From an uncultured Clostridia bacterium (lineage in GTDB: Bacteria > Bacillota > Clostridia > Peptostreptococcales > Anaerovoracaceae): a stretch of 64,000 nucleotides of DNA. The position numbers were made by a program, and so were the translations under genes. The notes below the pieces were generated by a model. It was not told where the DNA came from. It saw only the letters and a list, made by a program, of their open reading frames with translations, and did not search any database. Each line of letters starts with the position of its first letter. Position 1 is the stretch's first letter. Positions 3,866 to 32,171 of this stretch are shown here, in pieces. The stretch lies in contig CAMYVY010000009.1 in NCBI GenBank assembly GCA_947302715.1, positions 11,648 to 75,647 of the forward strand. Reading direction: 5' to 3'.

Positions 3866-5468
3866 GAATATATCAAAGCTTGTGGCTGCCGGAGTTGCTA
3901 TTGGAGTTGCTGCCGGCATGACCAAGGACGTTGCTGCCGGCGTTGGAAAAATGCTTGACAGGAGCAGCGTGATTTTTGGTAATGCCATGGATGCTGCCGT
4001 ACTGCGTAAGGCGGAAAAATCAAAGCAGAAATTCATAAAAAAGTATGGTGATGATTCTCAGAAGAAATACCATCTGGGCCTTGAACCCATAAACCAGATA
4101 TCCGAGATAAAGCTTCAAAACCTTGTTCATTCTGAGGAGCCCCTCGTTCTTCCGGAAAACCCTCTGATTGTTGGTAACATCCGCATGGGATTTGGACACT
4201 ACAGGATTTCACTGGCCATAGCATCCTGCGCACAAGCCATGGGATTTACACCTGTATGGTTCGACCTTGCTTCCTTTGATGCAACCGGATCTTCAATGAT
4301 AAGATCACAGAATGACCTTTATTCTTTGGGATCAAAGATTTCGCAGAAGAGCAGATTATTTAATTACTTCGTTTGGGAACCTATGAACAGCGAAGGATTC
4401 AAGAGGATTACATATAATGCTACTGATCAAAAGAATGCTGAGCTGTTGGTGCCATTGTATGGCGACCTTCCGAAGAATGTTCCCTTTGCTGCAACACATG
4501 TATGGCCCAGCCAGGGGGCGGTCCATGCAGGACTGACAAATGTAGTTAATGCAATTCCGGACAACTGGCCCATGGGACTGCACCTATCTGAGGGTTCAAT
4601 TCATGCGGTTCAAACTCCATTCGCCTACCTTGGTTACAAGTCACTAAATGGCATGGCAAAGCATCCGCTGAAACACATTCCTGATAATGATTTATTTGAG
4701 GTTGGTCACTATGTTGATCACGAGATTGTTTCAAATGTTGAACAGGATTGTGAGAGGAGAATCTGGCGACAAAACGCCAAAGCGCCGGTACGCTTCCTGC
4801 TTACAGTTGGCGGAGCAGGTGCAGGAGGAGACCTTTATGTTGACATGACAAAGCACCTTCTGGAACACGTAAAGGCTGGACGAGCCAGCGTCATCATTAA
4901 TTTTGGAGATCATCTCAGTATGTGGGATGTCTTTAAGAAAAAAATCCCCGGAATTGAGAAGATAACAAAGACCTACTTTGATGATTATGCTGGATTAAGG
5001 GATTTTGCTGATGCATATGTGAACGGGGATGCGAATTGGAACGCAAATGCGACAGAGAATGCGGATGCCAATGCCAATGCCAATACCAAGATACAGGGAG
5101 CTTGTTCTGATTCAGCAATAATAGCGGTATGCAACAAAGACATTTTCGAGGCAGTTTATTCTACTAACCTTTTGATGAGGGGATGCGATATACTTGTGAC
5201 TAAACCAAGCGAGCTTGTCTTCTACCCGGTTCCCAAATTATTTATGCGTCATATCGGTGGTCATGAAGTATACGGCGCAATGCATGCCCAAGAGATAGGC
5301 GATGCGACCAACGAGTGCAAGACCTCGAAGGAAATATGCGACATGATAGACATACTGGTTGAAGATAGAAAAATCATAACCCATATGTGCGAGCGAATAG
5401 TCTCTCTGAAAGAGTACGGAATTTATAACGGTGGTTATGAAGTTGTTAAACTGGCTGCCAAGATATAA
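3858..5468 (+). CDS. Conserved hypothetical protein with GT-B / MGDG-synthase-like (GT28-like) motifs
   Basis: 'GNIRMGFGHYR', 'LLTVGGAGAG' and 'DILVTKPSEL' resemble GT28/UgtP motifs. ATG at 3858 overlaps the GH36 stop (TAA 3863-3865), preferred over the tracked start 3819. Confidence 0.55.
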   Translation: MAKNISKLVAAGVAIGVAAGMTKDVAAGVGKMLDRSSVIFGNAMDAAVLRKAEKSKQKFIKKYGDDSQKKYHLGLEPINQISEIKLQNLVHSEEPLVLPENPLIVGNIRMGFGHYRISLAIASCAQAMGFTPVWFDLASFDATGSSMIRSQNDLYSLGSKISQKSRLFNYFVWEPMNSEGFKRITYNATDQKNAELLVPLYGDLPKNVPFAATHVWPSQGAVHAGLTNVVNAIPDNWPMGLHLSEGSIHAVQTPFAYLGYKSLNGMAKHPLKHIPDNDLFEVGHYVDHEIVSNVEQDCERRIWRQNAKAPVRFLLTVGGAGAGGDLYVDMTKHLLEHVKAGRASVIINFGDHLSMWDVFKKKIPGIEKITKTYFDDYAGLRDFADAYVNGDANWNANATENADANANANTKIQGACSDSAIIAVCNKDIFEAVYSTNLLMRGCDILVTKPSELVFYPVPKLFMRHIGGHEVYGAMHAQEIGDATNECKTSKEICDMIDILVEDRKIITHMCERIVSLKEYGIYNGGYEVVKLAAKI

Positions 5469-5560
5469 TCTTTGTAAAGCAACTTGCACTCTATCTTTCC
5501 CCCATGTTATCATAGGAGTAAGTTATCGTTCGAGATAAAGTATAAGTTAGAGAGCAGGAT

Positions 5561-5669
5561 ATGGGAATCTATATAAATCCGGGTAATAGGTGGATTCACG
5601 AGAATTTTTAATAGTGAATACATCGACAAAACCGGTATAATAGAGCTGGTAAACAAAAGTATTGATACT
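5561..5669 (+). pseudogene. Frameshifted, truncated N-terminus of an AAA-ATPase-like/PD-(D/E)XK nuclease family gene
   Basis: ATG 5561 gives MGIYINPGN; after a 1-nt shift it reads GFTRIFNSEYIDKTGIIELVNKSIDT, matching the family start 'MGxYxNPGN..F....NS.YVDKT'. No Walker A follows. Promoter-like TTGCAC (5484) and TGtTATCAT (5505-5513) lie upstream. Confidence 0.6.
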
Positions 5670-5729
5670 ACTCTTTTGCTGCGCAGATGCTGCTGGCGAA
5701 TAGATGAAAATACATAAGCACAAGAGATA

Positions 5730-5761
5730 CAAGAGACGGCCTCAGGTGGGGCCGTCTCTTG
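5730..5761. terminator. Hairpin between convergent transcription units
   Basis: Perfect 12-bp stem caagagacggcc / ggccgtctcttg. Confidence 0.7.
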
Positions 5762-5796
5762 CACGATTTGATGATACTTATTGTGTATGAAGAAAT

Positions 5797-7557
5797 TTAT
5801 TGAAAAAGGATTCTTCTATATAGTTCTGCGAATTTATTTAAGGCCTGAAGTCCGTCTATTATTCTGTTCATGTTTCTAACTAACAAGGTTTCATATAAAC
5901 CATATTCCAATGAATCTTTATCAAATTCATCAAGCCTTGGGAGATCCGCCAACAGAGGAACCGGTGATGAAAGATTGGAGTGCCCATATCTATCTTGCTC
6001 ATATTTAGAAGCATATGTCTTAAAAATGTTCGAAAGAGAGCGGCTGCAGATTTTGAGAAAGTCGTTATAATCACTAATTGATTCTCTTTCCGTACCCTCG
6101 GAATCGAATAGGGCTTTTGCAGTCTTCTGAATACCGAGGACATTTTCCTTTGCTTCAAGGTACTCCTTTTCCAAGTCGCGGAAGTTTAAATGAGATTTAT
6201 ACCTTTCCATCAGGGGCAAAAGGTTTGCGTCGATCAGCTCAAAGTTTTTACTGAAGTCATAGGGGAGAATATCCGAGTTCAAAAGATTATAGATGAACTC
6301 CAAATGAATGCATGTATCCTTATACAGAATATCAGGATCACATTTATCCACGCCATCCTCGATAGTATGATTCCACCAGCCAAGAGTAGCACCGTGTGCG
6401 GCCTTTATATCTTCATCCGTAAAGGATATCCGCTGGCAAATCCCGGGAACGCCGATTCCCATATAACTCATGTCTCCTATCTTTTTAAGTGTCATCAGTC
6501 TAAGGTCTTCATCGGAGAGATAGGAAACATTGTTCCGTGCGAATGCATATAATTCGTCGCCGATTTTTATCTCAAGCAGTTTGGTGTCTCTTACGCCTGT
6601 GGAATCTATGTGCATATATGCGATACAGTTTTTATTGATCTCGTCCCAGTTGTGGTCGAGAAACCAGGTGGAACCGGCCGCTTCAGCTATTTCGTGTCCG
6701 TTCCAAAAAACAAAGTGGACATCGCGATTGAGCTCATTTCTATGTGCGGAAAGGATTCGACATAGCTCCAATGCGGTAGCATTTCCCGTTGCATTGCATG
6801 TGACTCCGGGTTCCCATGCATCAAGGTGCGATGCTATCAGCATGAATTCCTTTGACTTTCCATTTCCGCGGATTATACCATGTGGCTGATGAACCTTGCT
6901 CCAAGTCCTGTCCGCAATGGCGACCACATGAGCAATGACTTTTTTACCGGACTGTAAGGTTTCCTTTAGTCTGAGACCTGCACCGCGCGTTATACCAACG
7001 CCAATTAAATCGGGGATTTCATCAAAATTTTCAGGCGTGGGATTTCCCCATACTGACTTAATCGCACGATGACAAATAACTTCTTCGTCGTTGCCCCAAT
7101 TCATAGCCATGATACCAATAGCACCTTTTGAAGCAGCAATGCGTGCCTTTTCAGGAACAGGTGGTGCATAGGAAACTTCTACAAGAACCATCTTTCCTGT
7201 GACGTCAATATCTGCATAATCTTTTTCGCCACCGCTTCCGACATAGATAACCTCGACATCAACACCTTCTTCTCCTGTTGTTCTAATGTGCCCGCATGGA
7301 ATGCTATCGATTTCATATTCTTCAGGCATCAAAACTTTCACGGAGGAGGTGATTGGATTACTGTTATAAGTATTGAATTCCAGGTTCTCTACTTCAAGAC
7401 CGTAATCCCTCATTACCTCGGTTACGTAGATGGAAGCCCTATGCTCAGTTTCGCTCCCGGCAAGTCTATAAGGGAAGTTTTCAGTCATATACTTGATACG
7501 ATCAAACATACCCTCCTTGCTGACTTCATTTAATAATCCTTTAATATCATTCATCAT
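5797..7557 (-). CDS. M28 family peptidase with PA domain (atypical metal site)
   Basis: PA-like 'VIYVGSG...DVTGKMVLV', 'ASHLDAW', 'YMHIDSTG'. Start moved to MMNDIK because the tracked GTG at 7602 lies within the operator. Confidence 0.75.
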   Translation of the reverse strand: MMNDIKGLLNEVSKEGMFDRIKYMTENFPYRLAGSETEHRASIYVTEVMRDYGLEVENLEFNTYNSNPITSSVKVLMPEEYEIDSIPCGHIRTTGEEGVDVEVIYVGSGGEKDYADIDVTGKMVLVEVSYAPPVPEKARIAASKGAIGIMAMNWGNDEEVICHRAIKSVWGNPTPENFDEIPDLIGVGITRGAGLRLKETLQSGKKVIAHVVAIADRTWSKVHQPHGIIRGNGKSKEFMLIASHLDAWEPGVTCNATGNATALELCRILSAHRNELNRDVHFVFWNGHEIAEAAGSTWFLDHNWDEINKNCIAYMHIDSTGVRDTKLLEIKIGDELYAFARNNVSYLSDEDLRLMTLKKIGDMSYMGIGVPGICQRISFTDEDIKAAHGATLGWWNHTIEDGVDKCDPDILYKDTCIHLEFIYNLLNSDILPYDFSKNFELIDANLLPLMERYKSHLNFRDLEKEYLEAKENVLGIQKTAKALFDSEGTERESISDYNDFLKICSRSLSNIFKTYASKYEQDRYGHSNLSSPVPLLADLPRLDEFDKDSLEYGLYETLLVRNMNRIIDGLQALNKFAELYRRILFQ

Positions 7558-18613: not shown

Positions 18614-19993
18614 ATGTTTGTAGGAAGAGACGAGGAGCAGAAGAAGCTAAAAAAGCTTTATACTAATCAAGACCAATCGACGGCCTTGGTTTATGGTAGA
18701 AGGCGTATTGGTAAGACGGAATTAATCAAGCATACACTTAAGAATGTTGATATTCCCAGTATTTATTATGAGTGTAAAGAAACCTCTGAGGCAAATAATG
18801 TCCGTAGCCTCAGTTTTTTAATTGCAGAGCATTTTAATATACCGCTTCCCGCTTTTTCAGACATTGAGGAGGTTCTCTCATTTATCTTTCAACATGCGGA
18901 GAAATCCTCCATGATACTTGTGTTGGATGAATATCCTTATTTACAAAGAACCAAGACTGGCATGGATAGCATTCTCCAATCCCTAATAGACAGATTTAAA
19001 TCGTCTTCTTCATTAAAGCTTATATTATGTGGATCGTTTGTGGATACGATGAAATCCTTGCTGGAAGAACAGAATCCGTTATATGGAAGAGTGGATCTTA
19101 CCATCGAACTGACATCCATGGATTATTATGACTCTGCAAAATTCTATGAAGAATTTTCATATGAGGATAAAGTGCGCCTCTATAGCGTTTTTGGTGGGAT
19201 ACCATATTATAATCGATTAATTGATAACAAAAGGACTGTTAGAGAGAATATAATAGAGCTAATTGCATCTCCGGGAGCCAGGCTCGAGAATGAAGTCTCA
19301 ATGAATTTAAAGTCAGAACTTGCTAAAGTTATAAATGCAAATGAGGTCTTTGAGGCTTTAGCAAGAGGGTTTAATAAGTATAACGACATTTTATCTCAGT
19401 CTCATGTTAGCAGTAGCCCAGCGCTTGCGGATGTGCTTGAGAAATTGTGCAAGATGCAGATTGTGGAAAAAACTGCTCCCATTAATGATATGTACAATCG
19501 GAAAAAATCCAGCTACAGAATCTGTGATAATCTATCTTTGTTTTTCTATAAGTATGTTTTTCGTTACTCATCACAGATGAATATTATGGATAGTGATACC
19601 TTTTTTGATCGCTATATTGCTGAAGATTTTGAGAATCAGTATGTGCCCAAAGCATTTGAAGAAATCTGCACGCAATTTTTAATTAGAAGAAATAAAAATG
19701 GAATGATGGAAGAAACCTTTGACCAAATTGGAAGGTATTATTATGATAATCCCAATACAAGAACCAACGGAGAGTTTGATATTGTGACTCATGACAAGCG
19801 GGGATACATATCCTATGAAGTGAAATTTCGAAAGAAACCATTGGAGACATCAAGGATAGATGAAGAAATTGAGCAGGTTAAAAATTCCGGCCTTGAATGT
19901 TATAAGTACGGGTTTTTATCGAGGAGCGGATTTGAGAAGATGAAAAAAAGAGATGATTTGATTTTACTTGATATTAGCGATATTTACGAATAA
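18614..19993 (+). CDS. Archaeal-type ATPase with DUF234-like region and PD-(D/E)XK-type C-terminus
   Basis: Walker A GRRRIGKT, Walker B 'VLDEYPY', 'PLYGR', 'FGGIPYY', C-terminal 'EFDIV...YEVKF'. Confidence 0.8.
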   Translation: MFVGRDEEQKKLKKLYTNQDQSTALVYGRRRIGKTELIKHTLKNVDIPSIYYECKETSEANNVRSLSFLIAEHFNIPLPAFSDIEEVLSFIFQHAEKSSMILVLDEYPYLQRTKTGMDSILQSLIDRFKSSSSLKLILCGSFVDTMKSLLEEQNPLYGRVDLTIELTSMDYYDSAKFYEEFSYEDKVRLYSVFGGIPYYNRLIDNKRTVRENIIELIASPGARLENEVSMNLKSELAKVINANEVFEALARGFNKYNDILSQSHVSSSPALADVLEKLCKMQIVEKTAPINDMYNRKKSSYRICDNLSLFFYKYVFRYSSQMNIMDSDTFFDRYIAEDFENQYVPKAFEEICTQFLIRRNKNGMMEETFDQIGRYYYDNPNTRTNGEFDIVTHDKRGYISYEVKFRKKPLETSRIDEEIEQVKNSGLECYKYGFLSRSGFEKMKKRDDLILLDISDIYE

Positions 19994-20067: not shown

Positions 20068-21456
20068 ATGAACGTAAAGATTGACTTGAATAATTCCGGG
20101 ATTCCAATGGCCGATATCGTTGTCCATAGAGAGCTCGCAGAGGAGAAGTTGGACATGTTGTTCGCAGGAAGTGTTTCTGGGGGCAAAGCTCCTGCAGAGT
20201 CTGCTGCACTCGAATATACAGGTTGGGTGGATTTTCCGAACAGGATTACCGATGGAGAAATAAGCGTCATCGAGATGCTCGCAGACAATATCCGTGAGAC
20301 CTCCGATGTTTTGGTTGTTCTGGGCGTAGGCGGCTCATATATGGGAGCAAAAGCGTTAGCTGATATTATTCCGGGCGACGGAAGCACGGAGGTCATATTC
20401 GCAGGATATGATTTTAGCGCACGTCATATGCGCGAAATAATAGACAAACTTTGCGAAGGATGCGGTGATGCTGCAGCCGACCGCAAGAAAGGACGTGATT
20501 TCTCAATCTGCGCAATTTCAAAATCCGGCGGCACCATGGAGACTATGGCCGCATTCAGCATCATGATGAACTACGCAATAAAGCGCTACGGAGCGGACGA
20601 GGCAGCTGCTCGTACCTATGTTGTAACTGAGGACAAACCAAGTGCACTTCACAATTATGCGGAGAGAATCGGCTGTCATATAATACACATGCCTCTTGAT
20701 ATCGGCGGTCGCTATTCGGTGTTTACAGCGGTTGGCTTGATGCCACTTGCTGTTCACGGAATCAATATACGTGAATTTATAGAAGGAACTCGAGCACTCG
20801 CTAATTGCAACGTATTTCTTGCCGGTGCAACCGGCGAACCCTCGCAGATGACAGGAAGTACCGATGCCCTCGGCTCCGATGACTTATCGAATAGTGCCGC
20901 CGGACCGCTTGACTACGCAATAGCTCGGAACATTTTGCACGCGCGAGGAAAAAGCGTTGAGGTCTTTGAGTTCTTTGATCCCTATGCGGAATTCTTCGGG
21001 AACTGGCTCCAACAATTATTCGGTGAAAGCGAAGGAAAGAACGGAAAGGGCATCTATCCTGCAACGCTGACATTTAATCGCGACCTTCATTCCATGGGGC
21101 AGTTCCTCCAGGAGGGCGCGCCGTGCTTCTTCGAGACGATGGTTTTGTTCGGAAAGCAGCCGGACGACATCGAAATCCCGGAGACGGAAATAGTCCCCGA
21201 ACTTTCAAATCGAAAGATTGCAGATATTTGCCGGTATGTCGAGCAAGGCGTAATAGAGGCTCATCGAAAGGCGGGGATTCCGCTTATAACTATTTCGATT
21301 GATGAAATAACACCACGCTCCATGGGAGAATTCATGTATTTCTTCATGATTCAGTGTGCGGTGTCTGCGATGATTCTCGGCGTAAATCCTTTTGATCAGC
21401 CCGGAGTTGAAGCATACAAATCAGAGGTTAAAGCGCTTATAAAGGGAGAACTATGA
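20068..21456 (+). CDS. pgi: Glucose-6-phosphate isomerase
   Basis: 'GVGGSYMG', 'SKSGGT.ET', 'DIGGRYSV', 'QQLFGESEGK', 'DLHSMGQ', 'PFDQPGVEAYK'. Confidence 0.95.
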   Translation: MNVKIDLNNSGIPMADIVVHRELAEEKLDMLFAGSVSGGKAPAESAALEYTGWVDFPNRITDGEISVIEMLADNIRETSDVLVVLGVGGSYMGAKALADIIPGDGSTEVIFAGYDFSARHMREIIDKLCEGCGDAAADRKKGRDFSICAISKSGGTMETMAAFSIMMNYAIKRYGADEAAARTYVVTEDKPSALHNYAERIGCHIIHMPLDIGGRYSVFTAVGLMPLAVHGINIREFIEGTRALANCNVFLAGATGEPSQMTGSTDALGSDDLSNSAAGPLDYAIARNILHARGKSVEVFEFFDPYAEFFGNWLQQLFGESEGKNGKGIYPATLTFNRDLHSMGQFLQEGAPCFFETMVLFGKQPDDIEIPETEIVPELSNRKIADICRYVEQGVIEAHRKAGIPLITISIDEITPRSMGEFMYFFMIQCAVSAMILGVNPFDQPGVEAYKSEVKALIKGEL

Positions 21457-21623: not shown

Positions 21624-22634
21624 ATGAAGTATTTACTAACCGGCGGTGCCGGGTATATCGGATCGCACACTGCAATTGAAATGATTAACGCAGGATACGA
21701 GGTTATAATCGTTGATAATTTGTCTAACAGTGATGAGGTCGTAATCGATAGAATCGCTGAAATATCCGGGGTGAGGCCCGCGTTTTATCCTTATGACGTT
21801 TCGAACAAAGACGACATGCGCCGGGTTTTCTCTGAGAACGAGATCGCGGGAGTCATTCACTTTGCGGGACTAAAGGCTGTTGGTGAATCGGTTAATAAGC
21901 CTGTCGAATACTATAGGAACAATATTGACACGACGCTGACGCTTCTGGAAGTCATGAAGGAGTTTGGGGTATCGCAATTTGTATTCAGTTCATCTGCAAC
22001 CGTATATGGTGAAGAGAATCAGCCTCCATATTTGGAGTCGATGCCGAAGGGGAATTGTTCGAATCCCTATGGTTGGACGAAGTCGATGATCGAGCAAATC
22101 TTGACGGATGCAGCAAAGGCAAATCCTCTTTCAGTTGTACTCCTCAGGTATTTTAATCCTATAGGTGCGCATGCTTCCGGTTTAATTGGAGAGGACCCGC
22201 AGGGCATTCCGAATAATCTGATGCCATATGTTTCGCAGGTTGCCGTTGGTAGACTTCCGGAACTCACCATTTTTGGTGGAGACTACGATACGCCGGACGG
22301 AACGTGCCGCAGGGATTACATCCATGTTGTCGATCTTGCAGTGGGACATGTAAAGGCGGTGGAATTCGCAGCAAGGAATTCAGGCGTCGAAGTATTTAAC
22401 CTTGGCACTGGAACCCCCTATAGCGTCCTTGATATAGTGAATACATTCGAGCGCGTGAATGGCGTTCCTGTACCTCATAAAATCGGACCGCGCCGCGCAG
22501 GTGATCTGCAGGATTCCTGGGCCGATGCCGCTAAGGCAGCCGGAGTCCTCGGTTGGACCGCGGAGCGTACTCTTGATGACATGTGCCGCGATTCTTGGAA
22601 TTGGCAGAGCAAGAACCCAAAAGGATATAAATAA
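21624..22634 (+). CDS. galE: UDP-glucose 4-epimerase
   Basis: 'TGGAGYIGSHT', 'HFAGLKAVGES', 'FSSSATVYG', 'NPYGWTK', 'LRYFNP.GAH'. Confidence 0.95.
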   Translation: MKYLLTGGAGYIGSHTAIEMINAGYEVIIVDNLSNSDEVVIDRIAEISGVRPAFYPYDVSNKDDMRRVFSENEIAGVIHFAGLKAVGESVNKPVEYYRNNIDTTLTLLEVMKEFGVSQFVFSSSATVYGEENQPPYLESMPKGNCSNPYGWTKSMIEQILTDAAKANPLSVVLLRYFNPIGAHASGLIGEDPQGIPNNLMPYVSQVAVGRLPELTIFGGDYDTPDGTCRRDYIHVVDLAVGHVKAVEFAARNSGVEVFNLGTGTPYSVLDIVNTFERVNGVPVPHKIGPRRAGDLQDSWADAAKAAGVLGWTAERTLDDMCRDSWNWQSKNPKGYK

Positions 22635-22663: not shown

Positions 22664-23659
22664 ATGACTAAGACACTTGTTATAATGGCTGCGGGAATCG
22701 GTTCGCGATTCGGGGGCGGAATCAAGCAGCTTGAGCCTGTTGGACCGAATGGCGAAATAATAATGGACTATTCGATTCACGATGCGATAGCCGCCGGCTT
22801 TAAGAGAATCGTTTTCATCATTCGCCGAGACATCGAAGCGGATTTTATGGAGGTGATTGGTGACAGAATTGCTGCGGTTTGTGAGCCGCTTGGCGTTGAG
22901 GTTGCATACGCATTCCAAGAGAAGGACTTGATGCCGGCCGGGGTGCCTACAGAAGTCGAAGGACGTTTGCTTGATGATGTGATTATTGAACGAACAAAGC
23001 CTTGGGGCACAGGACACGCAATACTTGCCTGCGATGGTTTGATTGACGGCCCCTTTGCTGTTATAAACGCTGACGATTATTATGGAAAGAACGGATTTAA
23101 AAAGGCTGCGGAATTTCTTGAATCCGGCGGGGCCGAATACGGTCTTGTTGGTTATATTTTAAAGAACACGCTTTCCGACAACGGAGGCGTAACTCGCGGA
23201 ATCTGCCGGATTGCGTCTGATGGCAGCGATAGATTGATTGGAATCGACGAGACCAAGGACATCATCAAGGTCGTTAAACCTGCGGCAGAAAAAGGCGGCG
23301 AATCCGGCGGTGAATCGGAAACAGAAATCACTGCCGAATCCAACGGTGAACCTATTGATGTTAATTCGCTCGTATCAATGAACTTCTGGTGCTACCCCGC
23401 ATCGTTCATGGATGTGCTGAGAGAAGGCTTCCCGGAATTCCTCGAGGAGATGAGAGACCCTTTAAAGGATGAATACCTCCTTCCGACAATCGTGGATGGA
23501 CTTCTAAGACAAGGGACTGATGTCACGGTAATTCCGACGGACGACTGTTGGTTCGGTGTAACATATAAAGAAGACAAGACTTCCGTCGTCGACAGTTTCA
23601 AGAAACTCTACGAAGAGGGAGTCTACAGCGAGGACCTATACAATGAATTACAAAGATGA
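22664..23659 (+). CDS. Stand-alone sugar-1-phosphate nucleotidyltransferase
   Basis: 'IMAAGIGSRFGG.IKQ', 'KPWGTGHAIL', 'INADDYYG'; no left-handed beta-helix domain. Confidence 0.85.
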   Translation: MTKTLVIMAAGIGSRFGGGIKQLEPVGPNGEIIMDYSIHDAIAAGFKRIVFIIRRDIEADFMEVIGDRIAAVCEPLGVEVAYAFQEKDLMPAGVPTEVEGRLLDDVIIERTKPWGTGHAILACDGLIDGPFAVINADDYYGKNGFKKAAEFLESGGAEYGLVGYILKNTLSDNGGVTRGICRIASDGSDRLIGIDETKDIIKVVKPAAEKGGESGGESETEITAESNGEPIDVNSLVSMNFWCYPASFMDVLREGFPEFLEEMRDPLKDEYLLPTIVDGLLRQGTDVTVIPTDDCWFGVTYKEDKTSVVDSFKKLYEEGVYSEDLYNELQR

Positions 23660-25535
23660 ATATAAACGCTGGTTGGATAGTCCGACGGTGAGCAAAGCCG
23701 ACAAAGAGGAACTCCGTGCGCTTTCCGAAGACGAGGTTAGAGAAAGGTTTTCTGCTGAGCTGGAATTCGGAACTGCCGGAATTAGACGAGTCATGGAGGT
23801 TGGACCCGGTAGCATGAACAGCTATACGGTTAAGCATGTGACTCGCGCGCTTGGAATGTATTTAACTGGTGACAAAGATAATGCAAACCCGCAAAAACAA
23901 TACTCCGTTGTGATTGCGTGCGACTCGAGAAACAACAGCCAGAGATTTGCGGAGGAAGCAGCATGCGTACTTGCGGCACAGGGCATCCATGTGTTTTTGT
24001 TTGAGGACTTGAGACCGACACCCGAGCTATCGTTTGCCGTTCGCTACGCCGGTGCCTCCGCCGGAATCAACATAACCGCAAGCCATAACACCAAGGAATA
24101 CAATGGCTACAAGGTTTATGGATCTGATGGAGCGCAGCTATCTCCGGAGCACGCGGATGAGGTCGCTCGTATAATTTCCGAGACCGATGTCCTTGATGAG
24201 CCGGAATCGATGGACCTTGATGAGGCGGTGAAAAACAGCGTGGTCGAACTAATTGATGGCTATGTGGACAATATGTACCTGGCGCAGGTGATGCAGCAGT
24301 CGCGAATCGTTTCAGAAGCCGCAAAAACAAAAATTGTTTACACTGCGTTCCATGGAACAGGATACAAGTTTGTGCCGGAGGTTCTTAAGCGTGACGGTTT
24401 CGAAAATGTTTATTGCGTTGAGCCTCAGTGCATTCCGGACGGCGATTTTCCAACGGTCAAGAGTCCCAACCCGGAGAATGAAGAGAGCTTTAAAATGGCT
24501 ATTGAACTTGCGGCCTCTGTTTGCGCTGATTTGATTATCGGAACTGACCCGGACGGCGATCGCTGTGGCGTCGCAATCCCTGTGTCCAACGTTCAATCCG
24601 CACAATCATTAGACCGAGAAGAGGTCGGAATGACAGTGCAGGATTCGCAAGCTGCGCAGGAAGCTCCGGAACCATCAAGGAAATATAGAGTTCTTACCGG
24701 CAATCAAGTCGGCGTGCTGATTCTTGATTATCTAATCAAAATGCGCAGTATCGAAAGGCGCAATCTCGATACGCACGATCTTGAAAAGTCCAGTTCGGAC
24801 GCGACCAAACGGCCGTATGCCGCGAAGAGCATCGTTTCTACAAACATGGCGAATCGCATTTGTGAAAAACATGGCGTCGAAATGGTGGAAACTTTGACAG
24901 GCTTCAAGTTCATTGGTGAAAAGATGGAAGAACTCTCTGTCGGCCAGGGAAGGGAGTTTGTCTTTGGATTCGAAGAAAGCAACGGCTACCTTACCGGCCT
25001 CTATGCAAGGGACAAGGATTCGATTGTGGCGGCTTTGCTTGTTGCTGAGACTGCGGCCTATCATGCAGCTAATGGTCGAACCATGGAACAGGCGCTCGCC
25101 GCGCTCTACGAAGAATACGGTTATTATTTGGAAAAGGTGGTATCCAAGGGCTTTGATGGTCTTGATGGTGCAGCCGAGATGCAAGCGTTTATGGATAACT
25201 ATCGCCAAAATCCGCCATCAAAAATCGCAGGCCTACCGGTAATCACAATCAGGGATTATCTATCCGGCGAGATAAAAGAGATAGTCGGATCGCCGATAGC
25301 TACAGAGGATAGCGACACCTCTATTTATACGGATGCAAGTGCAGATGCGGGTATTCGCGTTCGACCGACCGGACTTCCAAAGAGCAATGTGCTCTTCTAC
25401 GAACTTGCCGGAGGAAGCAGCTTCGTCGTTCGCCCATCCGGTACAGAACCAAAAATCAAATTCTATCTGTCAGCTGTAGGTGCGACTCGCAGCGAAGCTG
25501 AGGCGGTGCTCGCAGCCCTCGAGTCTGCAATATAA
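23643..25535 (+). CDS. pgm: Phosphoglucomutase / phospho-sugar mutase
   Basis: 'FGTAG.R', 'ITASHN', 'DPDGDR', 'FEESNG', 'RPSGTEPKIKFY'. Confidence 0.92.
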   Translation: MNYKDEYKRWLDSPTVSKADKEELRALSEDEVRERFSAELEFGTAGIRRVMEVGPGSMNSYTVKHVTRALGMYLTGDKDNANPQKQYSVVIACDSRNNSQRFAEEAACVLAAQGIHVFLFEDLRPTPELSFAVRYAGASAGINITASHNTKEYNGYKVYGSDGAQLSPEHADEVARIISETDVLDEPESMDLDEAVKNSVVELIDGYVDNMYLAQVMQQSRIVSEAAKTKIVYTAFHGTGYKFVPEVLKRDGFENVYCVEPQCIPDGDFPTVKSPNPENEESFKMAIELAASVCADLIIGTDPDGDRCGVAIPVSNVQSAQSLDREEVGMTVQDSQAAQEAPEPSRKYRVLTGNQVGVLILDYLIKMRSIERRNLDTHDLEKSSSDATKRPYAAKSIVSTNMANRICEKHGVEMVETLTGFKFIGEKMEELSVGQGREFVFGFEESNGYLTGLYARDKDSIVAALLVAETAAYHAANGRTMEQALAALYEEYGYYLEKVVSKGFDGLDGAAEMQAFMDNYRQNPPSKIAGLPVITIRDYLSGEIKEIVGSPIATEDSDTSIYTDASADAGIRVRPTGLPKSNVLFYELAGGSSFVVRPSGTEPKIKFYLSAVGATRSEAEAVLAALESAI

Positions 25536-25576
25536 TCATTTGTTGTATTATGTGGCTATTAAAGATAAAGCAATTC

Positions 25577-25607
25577 ACGGTCGTGCATTTATGAGCGGCC
25601 GTTTTTT
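25577..25607 (+). terminator. Intrinsic terminator after pgm
   Basis: acggtcg / cggccgt stem followed by T6. Confidence 0.6.
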
Positions 25608-25717
25608 ACTCTATTTCAATTGGTGTAGCGCTAAATAATTACTAAATAATCGCTAAAAAGTCGTTTAAATAAGACTATGTCGTGGTTATGTCAAATGCTA
25701 AAAATAAGGCTATTTTT

Positions 25718-25747
25718 TTGCACGGGCACATGATTTTGTGCTATAAT
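25718..25747 (+). promoter_or_regulatory. Promoter of the ribozyme-led amino-sugar operon
   Basis: TTGCAC-18 bp-TATAAT with extended TG (25739-25740). Confidence 0.65.
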
Positions 25748-25882
25748 AAATCGATTATGGCTATATGTTGTTTATTTTTGTCATTAAAAGATGTTGACCG
25801 TGCGTAAATGATAAAGTAGCAGCATATAGGCATCAATTATAAAATGACCACTTGCGTATGGAGGTGAACAAGGAGCGGAGAG

Positions 25883-26100
25883 GTTATTAGCGCCTGGCCC
25901 GCAGCAGTAAGCATATTGAACTTATGTGACCGCCTAATCATGAGCGGTGTAATCAGTGAATTCAATTTGGTTTATGGCTGGACAGGGTGACGAGGAATGG
26001 CAGTTATCGAAATATTCGGCGGATGCTGCCACGGCCGGTTTGCGTAAAGTTGCAATGTTAATGCGGTTTTCAATGCCTTTTAAGTGACGAAGCAAGACAC
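25883..26100 (+). ncRNA. glmS ribozyme (GlcN6P-dependent self-cleaving riboswitch)
   Basis: Cleavage-site AGCGCC (25889-25894); P1 GCCC/GGGT; GACGAGG (25989-25995); P2 TGGCAG/CTGCCA; TTATCGAA-atat-TCGGCGGA. Order and pairing match the glmS core as I know it; the 3' boundary is approximate. Confidence 0.92.
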
Positions 26101-26244
26101 GCTTTGCGCAGCCTAATGGGTCGTCAGAGAGAATTAAAAAGCAAAATTAAAATTGTAACAGAGGTTCTCTTACATTTAATAATAAGGCAATTAGTTTAAC
26201 AAAGTTGTTTGAGCGACTTTTGACGAATAAAGGAGATTAGATAT

Positions 26245-26940
26245 ATGTACAAAATAGCAGATCTCTATGATCTGGAACATAGCTTGGCGGGGGAATACAT
26301 TGGACAATTCGAGTATCCCTGGGAGGCATTAAAAGGCATCAAGGACTTTATTTTGGAGCTCGGCCCGACCTTGGAAGAGCGCTTCCCCGGGGAATACGAG
26401 GAGAGAGAACCCCAGGTATGGGTTCACAAAACTGCGACAGTATTTCCTTCTGCTTATCTTGGTGCGCCTTGCATCATCGGACCGAACACTGAAGTAAGAC
26501 ATTGCGCATTCATCAGGGGATCCGCTCTTGTTGGCGCTGACTGCGTAGTCGGTAACAGCGTGGAGCTAAAGAACGTGATTCTCTTTGACCATGTTCAGAC
26601 GCCGCACTATAACTATGTTGGTGATTCCATCCTGGGATATTACAGCCACATGGGAGCAGGTTCGATCACATCCAACGTCAAAGCCGATAAAGAGCTGGTC
26701 ATTGTGAACAACGTGAGAGGCTGCGGAACCCCGGACGGTGAACCTGAAATGATAGAAACGGGCATCAAGAAATTCGGTGCGATGCTCGGTGACCACGTCG
26801 AGATTGGATGTAATGCGGTACTTAACCCGGGCACTGTCGTTGGTCGAAACACTAATGTCTATCCGACCAGTTGCGTGCGTGGCGTAGTCCCTGAAAGCAG
26901 CATTTTCAAAAATAGCGGCGAAATCATTAAAAAGAAGTAA
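26245..26940 (+). CDS. Stand-alone left-handed beta-helix acetyltransferase, GlmU C-terminal-like
   Basis: Hexapeptide repeats; 'YPWEAL', 'ELKN', 'PHYNYVGDSILG', 'GAGSITSN', 'GAMLGDHVEIGCNAVLNPG'; no nucleotidyltransferase domain. Confidence 0.8.
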   Translation: MYKIADLYDLEHSLAGEYIGQFEYPWEALKGIKDFILELGPTLEERFPGEYEEREPQVWVHKTATVFPSAYLGAPCIIGPNTEVRHCAFIRGSALVGADCVVGNSVELKNVILFDHVQTPHYNYVGDSILGYYSHMGAGSITSNVKADKELVIVNNVRGCGTPDGEPEMIETGIKKFGAMLGDHVEIGCNAVLNPGTVVGRNTNVYPTSCVRGVVPESSIFKNSGEIIKKK

Positions 26941-27092: not shown

Positions 27093-27893
27093 ATGCGTGT
27101 AGTAATACAGGACAATTATGATAAGATGTGCCAGTGGGCAGCTAATTATATAGCTGATAAAATATGCAAGCACAACGAAGAAGAAAGCAGTCGCCCATTT
27201 ATTTTGGGACTCCCGACAGGCTCCAGCCCGATTGGAGTCTACAAAGAACTCATCAAAAAGAACAAAGCCGGCGAACTCAGCTTTGCAAATGTTGTTACAT
27301 TTAATATGGACGAGTATCTTGGCTTGCCACATGAACACGACCAAAGTTATTGGTACTTCATGCACGACAACTTCTTTAATCATCTCGTTGACATGAAACC
27401 GGAAAACATCAACATCCTAAACGGAATGACGGATGACCCGGAGGCGGAATGTGCCGCCTACGAGGAGAAGATTGAGTCGTATGGCGGAATCGATCTCTTT
27501 ATGGGGGGAATCGGTGTGGACGGACACTTGGCATTCAATGAGCCATTCACGTCATTAACAAGCCGCACCGGACTGCGCGACCTGACTACCGACACAAGAA
27601 TCGTAAACTCCAGGTTCTTTGATAACGACCCTAACAAGGTGCCGGCCCAGGCTCTCTCGGTCGGAATCGGAACGGTAACCGATTCAAAGGAAGTGCTTGT
27701 TTTGATTTCCGGACACAACAAGGCCCGCGCTCTTGCTGCAACGGTAGAGGGAAACGTGAGCCACAAATGGACGTGCTCGGCACTTCAGATGCACAATGGT
27801 GCAATCATTGCCTGTGACGAGGAAGCCTGCGGTGAACTAACTGTTGACACCTATAAATACTTCCTCGACATCGAAAAGAAAGAGAGATTGTAA
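27093..27893 (+). CDS. nagB: Glucosamine-6-phosphate deaminase/isomerase
   Basis: 'LGLPTGSSP', 'TFNMDEY', 'GGIGVDGHLAFNEP', 'NSRFFDND'; 266 aa. Confidence 0.95.
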   Translation: MRVVIQDNYDKMCQWAANYIADKICKHNEEESSRPFILGLPTGSSPIGVYKELIKKNKAGELSFANVVTFNMDEYLGLPHEHDQSYWYFMHDNFFNHLVDMKPENINILNGMTDDPEAECAAYEEKIESYGGIDLFMGGIGVDGHLAFNEPFTSLTSRTGLRDLTTDTRIVNSRFFDNDPNKVPAQALSVGIGTVTDSKEVLVLISGHNKARALAATVEGNVSHKWTCSALQMHNGAIIACDEEACGELTVDTYKYFLDIEKKERL

Positions 27894-27997
27894 TAAAAGA
27901 TTGTAATAAATAATTGTAATCAGTAATAACTTGAAGGTGGGCATTCGTCAATTGAATGCTTTCACGATTAAACTGTACTAAACAAAAAGGAGATACC

Positions 27998-29353
27998 ATG
28001 GGGAAATATTTTGGTACTGATGGTTTTCGCGGCGAGGCCAATAAAGACCTTAATTATGAACATGCGATAAAGATTGGGCGTTTCCTTGGCTGGTACTATG
28101 GCGCAAAGCAAGGACCGGAGAAAAAAGCCAAGGTAGTTATCGGCAAGGACACGCGCCGCTCGAGCTATATGTTCGAGGATGCGTTGTGCACAGGCCTTAT
28201 TGCGAGCGGCGCTGACGCCTATATCATGCATGTTACAACGACTCCGTCGGTTGCGTACATCACGCGTGTTGACGACTTTGATTGCGGAATAATGATTTCC
28301 GCGTCGCACAATCCGTTCTACGATAACGGCATCAAGCTCTTCAACGAAAAAGGTGAGAAGATGCCGGAGGATACGATTCTTGAAATCGAGGATTACATCG
28401 ATGGAAAGTTGGAGATTCCGCTTGCCGTCCGTGATAAAATCGGGCAGACCGTTGACTACGAATCCGGCCGCAACCGCTACATGGGTTATCTGATTTCGCT
28501 GGCGAAGTACGGCTTCAAGGATGTGAAGGTAGGTCTGGATGTTGCAAACGGTGCGGCCTGGTCTATTGCTAAGGGAGTTTTCAATGCGCTCGGCGCAAAG
28601 ACCTACGTTATAAACGACAGCCCGGATGGTTTCAACATCAACACCGACTGCGGCTCCACTCATATCGAGCATCTGCAGAAGTTCGTGGTCGACAATGGTC
28701 TGGATGTTGGTTTTGCTTATGATGGCGATGCCGACCGTTGCCTCTGCGTCGATGAAAAGGGAAACGTCATTACTGGCGACCACATTCTCTATATCTACGG
28801 CCTCTACATGAAAGAGCGCGACAAACTTCTCGACAACAAAATCGTAACGACCATCATGAGTAACTTTGGTCTCTATAAGGCGCTCGACAAGGTCGGCATC
28901 GAATATGAGAAAACCAAAGTCGGCGACAAATATGTCTATGAATGCATGGCCGAAAACGGTTATCGTATCGGCGGTGAACAGAGCGGCCACATCATTTTTA
29001 CAAAGTATGCGACGACGGGTGACGGCATCCTGACCAGTCTCAAAATCATGGAGGCGATGCTGGCAAAGAAGAAGCCGCTTAGTGAACTCGCTGCACCAGT
29101 AGAGTTCTATCCGCAGGTTCTTAAGAACGTCCGCGTGAAGAGTAAGCCCGACGCACAGAATGACCCGGATGTGCAGGCAGCGGTCGCAGCGGTCTCCGAG
29201 AAACTGGGAGACGAAGGACGAATTCTCGTTCGCGAGTCCGGGACAGAGCCTGTGATTCGCGTAATGGTTGAGGCGGGCTCCGACGAGACCTGTGAAAAAT
29301 ACGTTGATGAGGTCATCGAGGTTATTGCGAGCAAGGGCCACATCGCAGAGTAG
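27998..29353 (+). CDS. glmM: Phosphoglucosamine mutase
   Basis: 'KYFGTDG.RG', 'GKDTRRS', 'ISASHNPF.DNGIK', 'DGDADR', 'VGDKYV', 'GGEQSGH', 'RESGTEP'; AAGGAG RBS before ATG 27998. Confidence 0.95.
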   Translation: MGKYFGTDGFRGEANKDLNYEHAIKIGRFLGWYYGAKQGPEKKAKVVIGKDTRRSSYMFEDALCTGLIASGADAYIMHVTTTPSVAYITRVDDFDCGIMISASHNPFYDNGIKLFNEKGEKMPEDTILEIEDYIDGKLEIPLAVRDKIGQTVDYESGRNRYMGYLISLAKYGFKDVKVGLDVANGAAWSIAKGVFNALGAKTYVINDSPDGFNINTDCGSTHIEHLQKFVVDNGLDVGFAYDGDADRCLCVDEKGNVITGDHILYIYGLYMKERDKLLDNKIVTTIMSNFGLYKALDKVGIEYEKTKVGDKYVYECMAENGYRIGGEQSGHIIFTKYATTGDGILTSLKIMEAMLAKKKPLSELAAPVEFYPQVLKNVRVKSKPDAQNDPDVQAAVAAVSEKLGDEGRILVRESGTEPVIRVMVEAGSDETCEKYVDEVIEVIASKGHIAE

Positions 29354-29663: not shown

Positions 29664-30182
29664 ATGAATAATATCAACCCAAGTAGAAAATATCTAATAG
29701 CCACTTTGATAGTCATGGCTTTCATTTTCTTTCAGTCGTCTTTACAAGGACCCGTGTCAGGAAATGAGAGTGGCGTTTTTGTTGAGATTATAGCCAAAAT
29801 ACTCAAAGTGACGCCGGACGAAGGTTTCCATTTTACAATAAGAAAACTTGCTCATTTTACGGAGTATGCGATATTGGGCATAACGCTCGGATTGCTCGTT
29901 TGGAGCCCATCGAACAAGGCCGCCACCGAGCATTCAAACTCCGCAGATCATCTTGATGAAACCATAGCATCAGGTGAAGTAATTCTTCCTCAATTTAGAA
30001 CAGGATTTATTGCATGGTTAATAGGTAGTGTTTATGCTGTGACAGATGAACTTCATCAATATTTAGTCCCTGGCAGGAGCTGCCAAGTGAATGATATGCT
30101 TATCGATTCCGCCGGGGTATTCTTTGGGGTGCTTTTAACCGGCATTCTATTATTATTTATTAGGCGTACAAGACGAGTGTAA
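29664..30182 (+). CDS. VanZ family membrane protein
   Basis: 'RKLAHFTEYAILG', 'YAVTDELHQ..VPGR....D..ID'. Confidence 0.85.
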   Translation: MNNINPSRKYLIATLIVMAFIFFQSSLQGPVSGNESGVFVEIIAKILKVTPDEGFHFTIRKLAHFTEYAILGITLGLLVWSPSNKAATEHSNSADHLDETIASGEVILPQFRTGFIAWLIGSVYAVTDELHQYLVPGRSCQVNDMLIDSAGVFFGVLLTGILLLFIRRTRRV

Positions 30183-30260: not shown

Positions 30261-32171
30261 ATGATGAAAGGCAATCTCTTTAGAAGGCAATTAAGAAGAC
30301 AACTATCTTTAATACTTGTTGTTTTTACTTTATTCTTGATGTTCCCTGGTTACTGGGGCGGAATAACTATTGCAGCAGCGCAGGAATCTGACATAGATAT
30401 CAACAGTTACGATAGCCTGGGTCTCAGAGGCACTTTCTGCTACGACAAAGCCTTCGAAGTACTTGCAATAGTAAATGCCGAAAGAGCAAAAGTCGGTCTC
30501 AGACCGTTAAGAATGGACGCAGAACTCCTTGATGCAGCAATGGTGAGAGCCGCCGAGACTGCGCTCTTGTTCTCACACACAAGGCCGAATGGTGAAGCGT
30601 GCTTCTCCATCAGCGGAAGCATGTTCGGAGAAAATATCGCTTATGGCCATAATAATGCAGCGGGTACGATGGAACAGTGGATGAATTCACCGGGTCACAA
30701 ATACAATATTCTAAATGGATGGTCGAATACTCCGAGTGAATATAAAAACCCAATGAGGTATACCACGATAGGTATTGGATGCTTCGAGTATGCGGGCAGG
30801 TGCTATTGGAGTCAGGCCTTCGGAATTGCCAACCTTTCTTCTGACTGTGCAAGACCGAGAAATGACATGATGGATGTGATGATTGCAATGCCAAGAAATA
30901 ACTTTATTCTTGATGGTGGCAACAGAATTACGTACACATTCGATCCTCTGGTTTGGATACAGGATGAGCACAATTCGTTTTTCTATGCCATAGGTGATGA
31001 GCCAATCTTGGTGAATGTGGGAGAGGGAACAACTCTTGGCTTGGGGATGAACGGAGTGGTATTCATACCTGAGTCAGTGCGATGGAAGATTGGAGACGCA
31101 AGCGTTGCGAAGATGGACGGCATCAATGTTATCGGAGTTAAGCCTGGAATTACAAAACTTACAGCGATGTCTTCCGCCGGAACGGAAAGAGCAACTGCCA
31201 ACGTAAAGGTTGTTGACTTTAAGCGTGTTTCCGGAAAAGACAGATATCTGACCTCAATTGCTGCAGCGGATTATTTGCTGGAGCAAAGAAAGGAAAGCGG
31301 TAAATTATCAAAATTTGACACGGTTGTAATTGCCTTTGGTGGGAATTTTGCTGATGCGCTTTCCGGAACATATTTGGCGGGAATCACGGATGCTCCAATT
31401 CTTTTAGTAAACAAGACCTACGAGGAACAGGTTGTCAGCTACATAAAATCCAACCTCAGGTCGGGAGGAAAGGCGTATATTCTTGGTGGCAACTTGGCTG
31501 TTTCAAAGAGCGTTGAGGACAAGCTGGGTTCATCCGGATTTGCTGTAAAGAGGCTTGCTGGTCAAGATCGTTACGGTACAAATTTGGCAATCCTGGAGGA
31601 GTGCGCAGCTATCAGCGGCCTCAGCTCCGGCTCCGGCTCCGGCTCCGCCATTTCCAATAACCATTACATGATTTGCTCGGGCACGAGCTTCGCGGATTCT
31701 CTCTCCGCCGCTTCCGTCGGATATCCAATAATGCTTGTTGGAAAGTCATTGACGTCCGCGCAGAGGGAACATCTTCTCAAACAGCAGAGCTTGACCGTTA
31801 GCAAATTCGCAGCGGATATAATCGGGGGCACATTTGCTGTAAATTCTTCAGTTGAGGGAGAACTCGGAAATTATACTGCAGCTATTCGAAGAATTGGAGG
31901 AAAGGATCGATTTGAAACATCCGAGTTGGTAGCCAAGAACTATTTCTCTAACCCTGATTCTGCAGTCTTAGTCTATTCGCAGAATTTCCCCGATGGGCTA
32001 TCGGGTGGTCCGGTGGGAGTTGCACTGAACGCACCGATTCTTTTAGTGAACAACAAAAATTACTCCAGAGCAGAGTCGTTTTGCAAGTTGAATAGAATCA
32101 GAAAAGTTGTCGCTGTAGGTGGACAAGTGATTATACCTGATGAAGTAGGTATTGCTTGCGTTGCTTGGTAG
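30261..32171 (+). CDS. Secreted CAP (SCP) domain + Ig-like + three CWB2 repeats
   Basis: Signal-like N-terminus; 'IVNAERAKVGL.PL', 'HTRPNG', 'GENIAYG', 'WMNSPGH..NIL'; repeats 'R..G.DRY.T', 'FADALS', 'PILL'. Confidence 0.85.
   Translation: MMKGNLFRRQLRRQLSLILVVFTLFLMFPGYWGGITIAAAQESDIDINSYDSLGLRGTFCYDKAFEVLAIVNAERAKVGLRPLRMDAELLDAAMVRAAETALLFSHTRPNGEACFSISGSMFGENIAYGHNNAAGTMEQWMNSPGHKYNILNGWSNTPSEYKNPMRYTTIGIGCFEYAGRCYWSQAFGIANLSSDCARPRNDMMDVMIAMPRNNFILDGGNRITYTFDPLVWIQDEHNSFFYAIGDEPILVNVGEGTTLGLGMNGVVFIPESVRWKIGDASVAKMDGINVIGVKPGITKLTAMSSAGTERATANVKVVDFKRVSGKDRYLTSIAAADYLLEQRKESGKLSKFDTVVIAFGGNFADALSGTYLAGITDAPILLVNKTYEEQVVSYIKSNLRSGGKAYILGGNLAVSKSVEDKLGSSGFAVKRLAGQDRYGTNLAILEECAAISGLSSGSGSGSAISNNHYMICSGTSFADSLSAASVGYPIMLVGKSLTSAQREHLLKQQSLTVSKFAADIIGGTFAVNSSVEGELGNYTAAIRRIGGKDRFETSELVAKNYFSNPDSAVLVYSQNFPDGLSGGPVGVALNAPILLVNNKNYSRAESFCKLNRIRKVVAVGGQVIIPDEVGIACVAW

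Follow-up and report, generated by a model that had tools for sequence, protein, structure and literature searches.

How does a bacterium that requires UDP-N-acetylglucosamine (UDP-GlcNAc) obtain it when no gene for the bifunctional enzyme GlmU can be found in its genome? The question is raised by a 64,000-nt stretch of DNA from an uncultured Clostridia bacterium (contig C9, positions 11648-75647; hereafter the window), part of a 2.05-Mb genome in 43 contigs that is 90.8% complete. In this window a glmS ribozyme stands before the gene for a stand-alone left-handed beta-helix (LbH) protein, P0002, followed by nagB and glmM, and the gene for a nucleotidyltransferase (NT), P0001, lies nearby. Because murA is present in the genome (566 bits), UDP-GlcNAc is required. 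GlmU is an antibiotic target and, to our knowledge, is regarded as universal and essential in bacteria; genomes of this kind appear to miss an essential step. Our analysis makes it likely that the step is not missing and that UDP-GlcNAc is made modularly by NagB, GlmM, the stand-alone LbH protein and an NT of the family represented by PDB 3PNN, with one NT paralogue (P0242, group B) as the housekeeping enzyme and the other (P0001, group A) serving UDP-hexose synthesis or an accessory role.

A probable stand-alone acetyltransferase and its ribozyme

Two neighbouring gene sets lie on the plus strand, pgi-galE-P0001-mutase and ribozyme-P0002-nagB-glmM, with a 710-nt spacer between them. The second set comprises the following features.

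25718-25747, plus strand: promoter-like site before the ribozyme (seen by eye: TTGCAC, 18-nt spacing, extended -10 TGcTATAAT)
25878-26084, plus strand: glmS ribozyme (RF00234, 39.4 bits, gathering score 37, E 1.2e-7, full model 1-167)
26231-26235, plus strand: ribosome-binding site AGGAG of P0002 (from the sequence)
26245-26940, plus strand: P0002, 231-aa stand-alone LbH protein, proposed glucosamine-1-phosphate (GlcN1P) N-acetyltransferase (C-half of TIGR03992, ST0452 alignment)
27093-27893, plus strand: nagB, glucosamine-6-phosphate (GlcN6P) deaminase/isomerase (TIGR00502, 376 bits, above cut-off)
27956-29353, plus strand: glmM, phosphoglucosamine mutase, GlcN6P to GlcN1P (TIGR01455, 536 bits, above cut-off)

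A preliminary description of the locus, made from its sequence, had read 26245-26940 as nothing but a beta-helix with the motif HYNYVGDS, preceded by a YPWEAL segment recalling the linker of archaeal-type GlmU, and had placed it behind a ribozyme and close to pgi, nagB and glmM. All of this is borne out by the profile matches and by the open reading frame, in which the two motifs occupy residues 121-128 and 24-29 and Pfam Hexapep (PF00132) is matched with E 2e-13. The archaeal GlmU model ranks best for P0002 (TIGR03992, Arch_glmU; E 4.6e-38, 131 bits vs a cut-off of 292, positions 215-393 only), followed by an alternative bacterial type and by bacterial GlmU itself (TIGR01173; positions 310-384, 54 bits vs a cut-off of 367). 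P0002 has neither the fused NT domain nor the above-cut-off score of a bifunctional GlmU; its N-terminal segment, in which P25 and W26 are invariant among 21 homologues, lines up with the final stretch of the archaeal model's NT domain and with its linker.

Both by sequence and by fold, P0002 comes closest to ST0452 of Sulfolobus tokodaii (TIGR03992; PDB 2GGO, 5Z09), a fused 401-aa enzyme with a sugar-1-phosphate nucleotidyltransferase domain, of which P0002 represents the C-half alone. The alignment covers ST0452 residues 244-399 (E 2.8e-18) and places H308, Y311 and N331 opposite H121, Y124 and N144, whereas lysines K337 and K340 of ST0452 have no counterparts at the same positions. Residues R91, E107, K109, H121, Y124, N144 and K146 are invariant in 21 homologues of 41-100% identity, and H121, Y124 and N144 also in a set of 22; we take the first six to be the equivalents of E. 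coli GlmU R333, E349, K351, H363, Y366 and N386, on a constant offset of 242 from the aligned ranges and on the known GlmU structures. In the AlphaFold2 monomer model pLDDT is 90 or higher over residues 20-120, and the last 25 residues are predicted with low confidence; the best PDB folds are again the ST0452 entries. The C-terminal LbH domain of E. coli-type GlmU (TIGR01173) performs the step proposed for P0002, which differs from bacterial GlmU in lacking the N-terminal uridylyltransferase domain and in being closer to the archaeal type.

Homologues of about 220 aa, roughly 80% identical, occur over many metagenomic Clostridia, and the named ones carry the label "UDP-N-acetylglucosamine pyrophosphorylase", an activity that is impossible for them because they have no nucleotidyltransferase domain. 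In 10 of 20 loci examined, from different families and in both gene orders, the LbH gene directly adjoins glmM; other neighbours are nagB, glmS, a PF01704 (NagU-type) gene or cdaA, and in G227 the LbH and NagU-type genes are adjacent. Taken together, the invariant catalytic residues and the adjacency to glmM indicate that P0002 is very probably a monofunctional GlcN1P acetyltransferase equivalent to the C-domain of archaeal-type GlmU, as the preliminary description had supposed. Two further loci are worth recording. At L010 (G158; 3459-4949) the LbH gene comes immediately after a gene for a cdaA-type diadenylate cyclase, and at G056:C4:31652-33548 a PF01704 gene adjoins a distant LbH relative with 30% identity to P0002, in what looks like another pair of NagU and acetyltransferase.

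The ribozyme retains its core motifs, with AGCGCC and the GACGAGGA and UCGGCGGAUG blocks aligned; an 84-nt insertion interrupts P1, the P3/P4 region is shorter than usual, and cleavage is predicted between A25889 and G25890. It does not occupy the usual position of a glmS leader, the genes downstream being those for LbH, nagB and glmM. RF00234 was found in 54 of 151 class genomes searched and lies directly 5' of glmS wherever coordinates could be compared, except in G125, where the two are separated by a gene of about 1.5 kb (C1:1496278-1499757); placement relative to glmS was not obtained for four genomes (G016, G039, G088, G130), among which G039 has a strong ribozyme (C14:16295-16450, 88 bits) and no glmS match at E <= 1e-90. 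A ribozyme directly before the LbH gene was seen in the present genome and in G172, a member of another family with the order ribozyme-LbH-glmM and no glmS match. As a general rule the arrangement had to be discarded, since it recurs in just 1 of the 20 LbH loci (L005). Our literature search found no report of a glmS ribozyme upstream of nagB or glmM.

The spacer after the mutase gene contains, both read by eye, a terminator-like hairpin and the promoter-like site at 25718-25747, which was not reported by a consensus promoter scan because its -35 matches at only 3 of 6 positions, and which may be the promoter of the ribozyme operon. On account of the hairpin and this site, the two gene sets look like separate transcription units, of which only the second is under the ribozyme.

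Genes of UDP-GlcNAc synthesis in this genome and across Clostridia

The preliminary description had proposed a split GlmU, with P0002 and P0001 as its two halves, and had named a full-length glmU as evidence that would speak against it. No full-length or fused glmU was found in the genome, the GlmU model matching only P0002 (43 bits) and one unrelated LbH protein, and galU gave no TIGR01099 match at E <= 0.001. A whole-genome search for the GlmU N-domain was also without a match here, and the same search picks up stand-alone N-domains in three sampled genomes (G034, G153, G180). No NagU/UAP1 gene (PF01704) was detected in this genome by a search that was positive in 5 of 5 other genomes and in 19 of the 250 class genomes described below. 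A search with the GlmS model did not find glmS; an amidotransferase match on contig C1 was rejected as a candidate, since it covers only the N-terminal 226 model positions within a 493-aa frame and has no sugar-isomerase half. The NTP-transferase-fold genes of the genome are P0001, P0242 (contig C3) and TarI (contig C7) only, and the last, a ribitol-5-phosphate cytidylyltransferase within a TarL/TarF teichoic-acid cluster, was dismissed as a hidden uridylyltransferase. On contig C30, nahK and nagA adjoin a sugar ABC transporter.

For comparison, 250 genomes were drawn evenly across the class Clostridia; related genomes are not independent, so that the co-occurrence counts are descriptive only. 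A full-length P0002 orthologue is present in 61 of them. Genomes without a GlmU-like match better than 1e-24 (GlmU-negative) make up 48 of these 61 LbH carriers vs 10 of the 189 non-carriers, a strong anti-correlation with fused glmU of the kind that the preliminary description had suggested looking for. The other carriers have a full GlmU (seven) or an intermediate match (six), and four of the intermediates match the GlmU N-domain only, as stand-alone proteins in G034, G153 and G180 and over positions 2-332 in G110. Within the 48 LbH-positive, GlmU-negative genomes, 35 from 16 families have the 3PNN-type NT family without PF01704 and 13 from 8 families have PF01704 without the NT; none has both and none has neither. 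Of these 35 genomes, 15 have an NT that falls into a third subgroup, here called group C.

NagU, a UAP1-like protein of PF01704, makes UDP-GlcNAc in S. aureus, and some NagU-bearing species encode only truncated pieces of GlmU (Fong et al., bioRxiv 10.64898/2026.06.23.733835). The 13 PF01704 genomes of our sample represent this solution, and the concept is shared with the present locus: a monofunctional GlcNAc-1-phosphate (GlcNAc1P) uridyltransferase alongside a defective, truncated or C-domain-only GlmU. The present genome differs in having no PF01704 gene and, as we propose, a 3PNN-type NT in its stead; 3PNN-type proteins, the ribozyme and NagB are absent from the NagU preprint (bioRxiv 10.64898/2026.06.23.733835). 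A second precedent is GlmU_Cc (Ccan_15070) of Capnocytophaga canimorsus, a monofunctional and essential GlcNAc1P uridyltransferase in an organism with no fused GlmU (Renzi et al. 2015, PMC4358021). Judged by its description alone (GlmU N-domain type, bifunctional orthologues in other genera), that protein appears to be a true GlmU in truncated form and not a 3PNN-type enzyme; furthermore, Capnocytophaga, a GlcNAc auxotroph, has neither GlmM nor the acetyltransferase, whereas both genes are present here. Apart from these two papers, our search found no literature on stand-alone GlmU-C proteins in Clostridia or on 3PNN.

The family of the present genome is itself divided. Its 99% complete member G217 has an archaeal-type LbH protein and is without GlmU, NagU and GalU, and two others, counted among the closest relatives, have a stand-alone bacterial-type GlmU C-domain (G001:C14:9331-9969 and G163:C6:83065-83703) that covers model positions 236-449 in frames some 240 aa long, with a similar acetyltransferase score in G077. 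Two different stand-alone acetyltransferases are therefore used within one family.

Two nucleotidyltransferase paralogues

The first gene set of the window holds P0001 among genes of hexose phosphate metabolism.

20068-21456, plus strand: pgi, glucose-6-phosphate isomerase, glucose-6-phosphate (Glc6P) to fructose-6-phosphate (Fru6P) (NF010697, E 5e-107, 358 bits, below the 443-bit cut-off; PF00342)
21624-22634, plus strand: galE, UDP-glucose (possibly UDP-N-acetylhexosamine, UDP-HexNAc) 4-epimerase, first in the galE-NT-mutase cluster (TIGR01179, 427 bits, and NF007956, 467 bits, both above cut-off)
22664-23659, plus strand: P0001, 331-aa 3PNN-family sugar-1-phosphate NT, group A paralogue, candidate UDP-sugar pyrophosphorylase for glucose-1-phosphate or HexNAc-1-phosphate (PDB 3PNN match, fold)
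23643-25535, plus strand: 630-aa alpha-D-phosphohexomutase, PgcA-like (PGM_PMM domains I-IV)

Between galE and the P0001 gene lie 30 nt, and the end of the latter shares 17 nt with the beginning of the mutase gene. That it encodes a nucleotidyltransferase and nothing more agrees with its first description: the G-x-G-S-R...K loop lies at residues 11-21, invariant in 20 homologues, and no domain is found beside PF00483, itself borderline (20.9 bits vs a cut-off of 21.2). The AlphaFold2 model (pLDDT 88) has an RmlA/GalU-like fold. By sequence the match to PDB 3PNN spans residues 2-325 (E 8e-57), and by structure the model fits 3PNN (Foldseek E 6.8e-28, TM-scores of 0.78/0.86) better than RmlA and GalU structures (about 0.6); PDB GalU entries align with residues 6-142 only (E 4.5e-5). 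Homology to the GlmU N-domain was not found, there being no TIGR01173 match and only a 24-bit partial match to TIGR03992.

PDB 3PNN, from Porphyromonas gingivalis W83, is a structural-genomics entry annotated as "glycosyltransferase / conserved domain protein", for which our search found no paper, assigned function or ligand; no curated model for the family was among those matching P0001. To the same family belongs the 378-aa P0242 on contig C3, which is 38% identical to P0001, and the two define orthologous groups A and B, respectively. Group C matched only the N-half of P0001 but belongs to the family as well, since one of its proteins matches 3PNN over its full length (E 1.4e-77). Gly/Glu/Ser-rich insertions occur at residues ~205-232 of P0001, where confidence in the AlphaFold2 model is lowered, and ~173-216 of P0242, and are missing from homologues of about 298 aa.

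The idea that P0001 is the other half of a split GlmU thus fails: it belongs to the 3PNN family, gives no GlmU-model match, lies outside the ribozyme operon and is one of two paralogues. What stands of the split is its functional side, a separate acetyltransferase with no fused GlmU, and not gene fission; because the uridylyltransferase is a non-homologous replacement of another family, encoded elsewhere, "split" is the wrong word.

Which of the two paralogues would take the place of the GlmU N-domain is suggested by their relatives. Each of four sampled same-family genomes has a single NT gene, 63-77% identical to P0242 and 44-45% to P0001, and none of the four has a GlmU N-domain match, NagU or GalU; in G217 the PF00483 genes are a GlgC/GlgD-like pair and one group B NT only. 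Since group B is the conserved sole NT-family gene in these four relatives, it is the candidate for the housekeeping uridylyltransferase, and P0242 is more likely than P0001, an extra paralogue, to act on GlcNAc1P. Gene contexts of groups B and C are galE-NT-kinase (G192, G138), NT-kinase-galE (G207), NT-kinase (G048) and galE-NT (G181); the kinase matches Bifidobacterium NahK (E 5e-90), which places the NT at the step from HexNAc-1-phosphate to UDP-HexNAc. The logic is that of the Bifidobacterium lacto-N-biose/galacto-N-biose (LNB/GNB) pathway, with NahK (LnpB), the GalT-type LnpC and the GalE-type LnpD: an anomeric HexNAc kinase, activation to UDP-HexNAc and 4-epimerisation. The activating enzyme differs, being of NTP-transferase fold and presumably UTP-using in the galE-NT-nahK modules and a HIT-family UDP-Glc:hexose-1-phosphate uridylyltransferase in LNB/GNB.

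In the cluster of the window a phosphohexomutase occupies the place of the kinase. It carries the motifs TASHN, DPDGDR, GFEESNGY and RPSGTEP, and its nearest Atlas clusters are Bacillota phospho-sugar mutases/phosphoglucomutases of about 575 aa; its best NCBIfam match, a partial one, is archaeal GlmM. It probably converts Glc6P to glucose-1-phosphate (Glc1P); less probably, it may serve as a GlcNAc-phosphate mutase. The preliminary description had also offered P0001 as a GalU substitute. We favour this possibility somewhat, in the sense that P0001 may mainly supply UDP-hexose, because its gene lies between galE and the PgcA-like mutase gene and because GalU is lacking from every one of the 11 group A carriers in the sample (GalU is present in 46% of the whole sample). 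A division of labour between the paralogues, A for hexose and B for HexNAc, is accordingly held with moderate confidence.

Proposed pathway and its rivals

We propose that NagB converts Fru6P to GlcN6P, that GlmM converts GlcN6P to GlcN1P, that P0002 would acetylate GlcN1P with acetyl-CoA to GlcNAc1P, and that a 3PNN-family NT, in place of a GlmU N-domain or NagU, would join GlcNAc1P and UTP to give UDP-GlcNAc. The order from GlmM through acetyltransferase to uridylyltransferase is that of bacterial GlmU. NagB would probably run toward GlcN6P, since glmS was not found, and repression of nagB by GlcN6P is sensible only in that direction. With the LbH gene, nagB and glmM as one operon behind the glmS ribozyme, high GlcN6P should lead to cutting of the mRNA and lower all three enzymes. 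P0242 would be the main GlcNAc1P uridylyltransferase, and P0001, cotranscribed with galE and the PgcA-like mutase, would provide UDP-Glc/UDP-Gal or accessory UDP-HexNAc for surface glycans, replacing GalU.

More broadly, we lean slightly towards the view that 3PNN-type NTs are a third class of bacterial GlcNAc1P (HexNAc-1-phosphate) uridylyltransferase, interchangeable with the GlmU N-domain and NagU, that about 1 in 7 of the sampled Clostridia (35/250) rely for all their UDP-GlcNAc on one such NT and an archaeal-type acetyltransferase that stands alone, and that rumen lineages have brought NagB, acetyltransferase and GlmM under a glmS ribozyme after loss of glmS. If this is true, annotations and metabolic models of many gut and rumen Clostridia would be corrected, PDB 3PNN would gain a function, the conclusion of 2026 that bacteria with NagU can do without GlmU would extend to a second, unrelated replacement, and the last two steps to UDP-GlcNAc would appear as freely recombined modules.

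Several observations weigh against this picture. The ribozyme is barely above the gathering score, falling to 32.8 bits under stricter whole-genome filters. The NT family, present in 104-105 of the 250 genomes, also occurs in about 70 with a GlmU-like match and in 32 with GalU, so that its presence is not specific to GlmU loss, and the non-independence of related genomes means that the counts overstate their support. Our literature search found no assayed enzyme of either the LbH or the NT family. At 90.8% completeness, glmS, glmU or galU could sit in unassembled DNA, and glmS is present in 4 of 4 sampled same-family genomes. As for P0001, the galE-NT-mutase arrangement had to be given up as a conserved module, since 10 other group A loci and three metagenomic contigs do not show it, and other group A genes stand in varied glycan clusters. 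In G207 the group A gene has a YbbR (CdaR-like) gene before it and an LCP gene after it, and in G144, which is LbH-positive and GlmU-negative, a group A NT is the sole member of the NT family, which counts against a strict split into A for hexose and B for HexNAc.

The last two cases also belong to a tentative alternative, in which P0001 itself is the main GlcNAc1P uridylyltransferase, the mutase may feed it GlcNAc1P from GlcNAc-6-phosphate and GalE may make UDP-GalNAc. It is possible, if on the whole unlikely. G144 has no NagU besides having no GlmU, the G207 neighbourhood is a cell-wall context, the P0001 gene shares its strand with the LbH operon, which follows 2.6 kb downstream, the NT family overall tracks the absence of GlmU and NagU, and galE-NT-X resembles the galE-NT-nahK modules for HexNAc. 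Yet same-family genomes get by with a group B NT alone, P0001 is outside ribozyme control and divided from the operon by the hairpin and promoter-like site seen by eye, the mutase resembles PgcA-type phosphoglucomutases, and group A genes elsewhere are found in surface-glycan clusters.

We think it rather improbable that both NTs are promiscuous UDP-sugar pyrophosphorylases, accepting Glc1P, Gal-1-phosphate, GlcNAc1P and GalNAc-1-phosphate and differing only in regulation. Such breadth would suit the many single-NT genomes without GalU, GlmU N-domain or NagU, of which G217 is one and in which a single enzyme would then make both UDP-Glc and UDP-GlcNAc; it would also suit the modest negative association of the NT family with GalU (present in 32/104 NT-family genomes vs 83/146 others) and the additional link of the family to NahK. 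However, six LbH-positive, GlmU-negative genomes retain GalU beside the NT, which suggests that the NT is a poor source of UDP-Glc there, and identity between P0001 and P0242 is only 38%.

A eukaryote-like order, with the LbH protein acetylating GlcN6P and the 630-aa mutase turning GlcNAc-6-phosphate into GlcNAc1P, is very improbable. The extra phosphohexomutase gene does adjoin an NT gene, and the partial archaeal GlmM match of its product would fit, but known GlcN6P acetyltransferases (GNA1) belong to the GNAT family and not to LbH proteins, in half of the 20 loci the LbH gene adjoins glmM, with which it shares an operon in the present genome, and the ST0452/GlmU residues that bind and acetylate GlcN1P are conserved in P0002. 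Finally, an assembly artefact, with glmU, glmS and galU hidden in the ~9% that the assembly lacks and LbH and NT as accessory genes, is hardly credible, even given the incomplete assembly in 43 contigs and the glmS genes of the relatives, since the assembly would have had to miss three unlinked genes at once, G217 is likewise without glmU, galU and NagU, LbH occurs without GlmU in 47 other genomes, most of them more than 95% complete, and the ribozyme precedes LbH-nagB-glmM rather than glmS.

Some smaller observations accompany the modular pathway. At L038 of G207 (3995-7422), the YbbR/CdaR gene and a small open reading frame precede the group A NT, which stands in the usual place of glmM. NagU reportedly interacts with DacA in S. 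aureus, an interaction that the cdaA-LbH neighbourhood of G158 and the YbbR/CdaR-NT neighbourhood of G207 bring to mind. The best AlphaFold DB cluster match of the NT, A0A3A6CJL2 (53% identity), is a 490-aa fusion of a VanZ-like and an NT domain, which suggests that VanZ-like membrane proteins and the 3PNN-type family are functionally connected; a VanZ-family gene lies at 29664-30182 in the window, after glmM. Further out, a gene for an ATPase_2/DUF234 "archaeal ATPase" is located upstream of pgi (18614-19993), and downstream of the vanZ gene lies one for a secreted CAP-domain protein with three CWB2 cell-wall-binding repeats (30261-32171).

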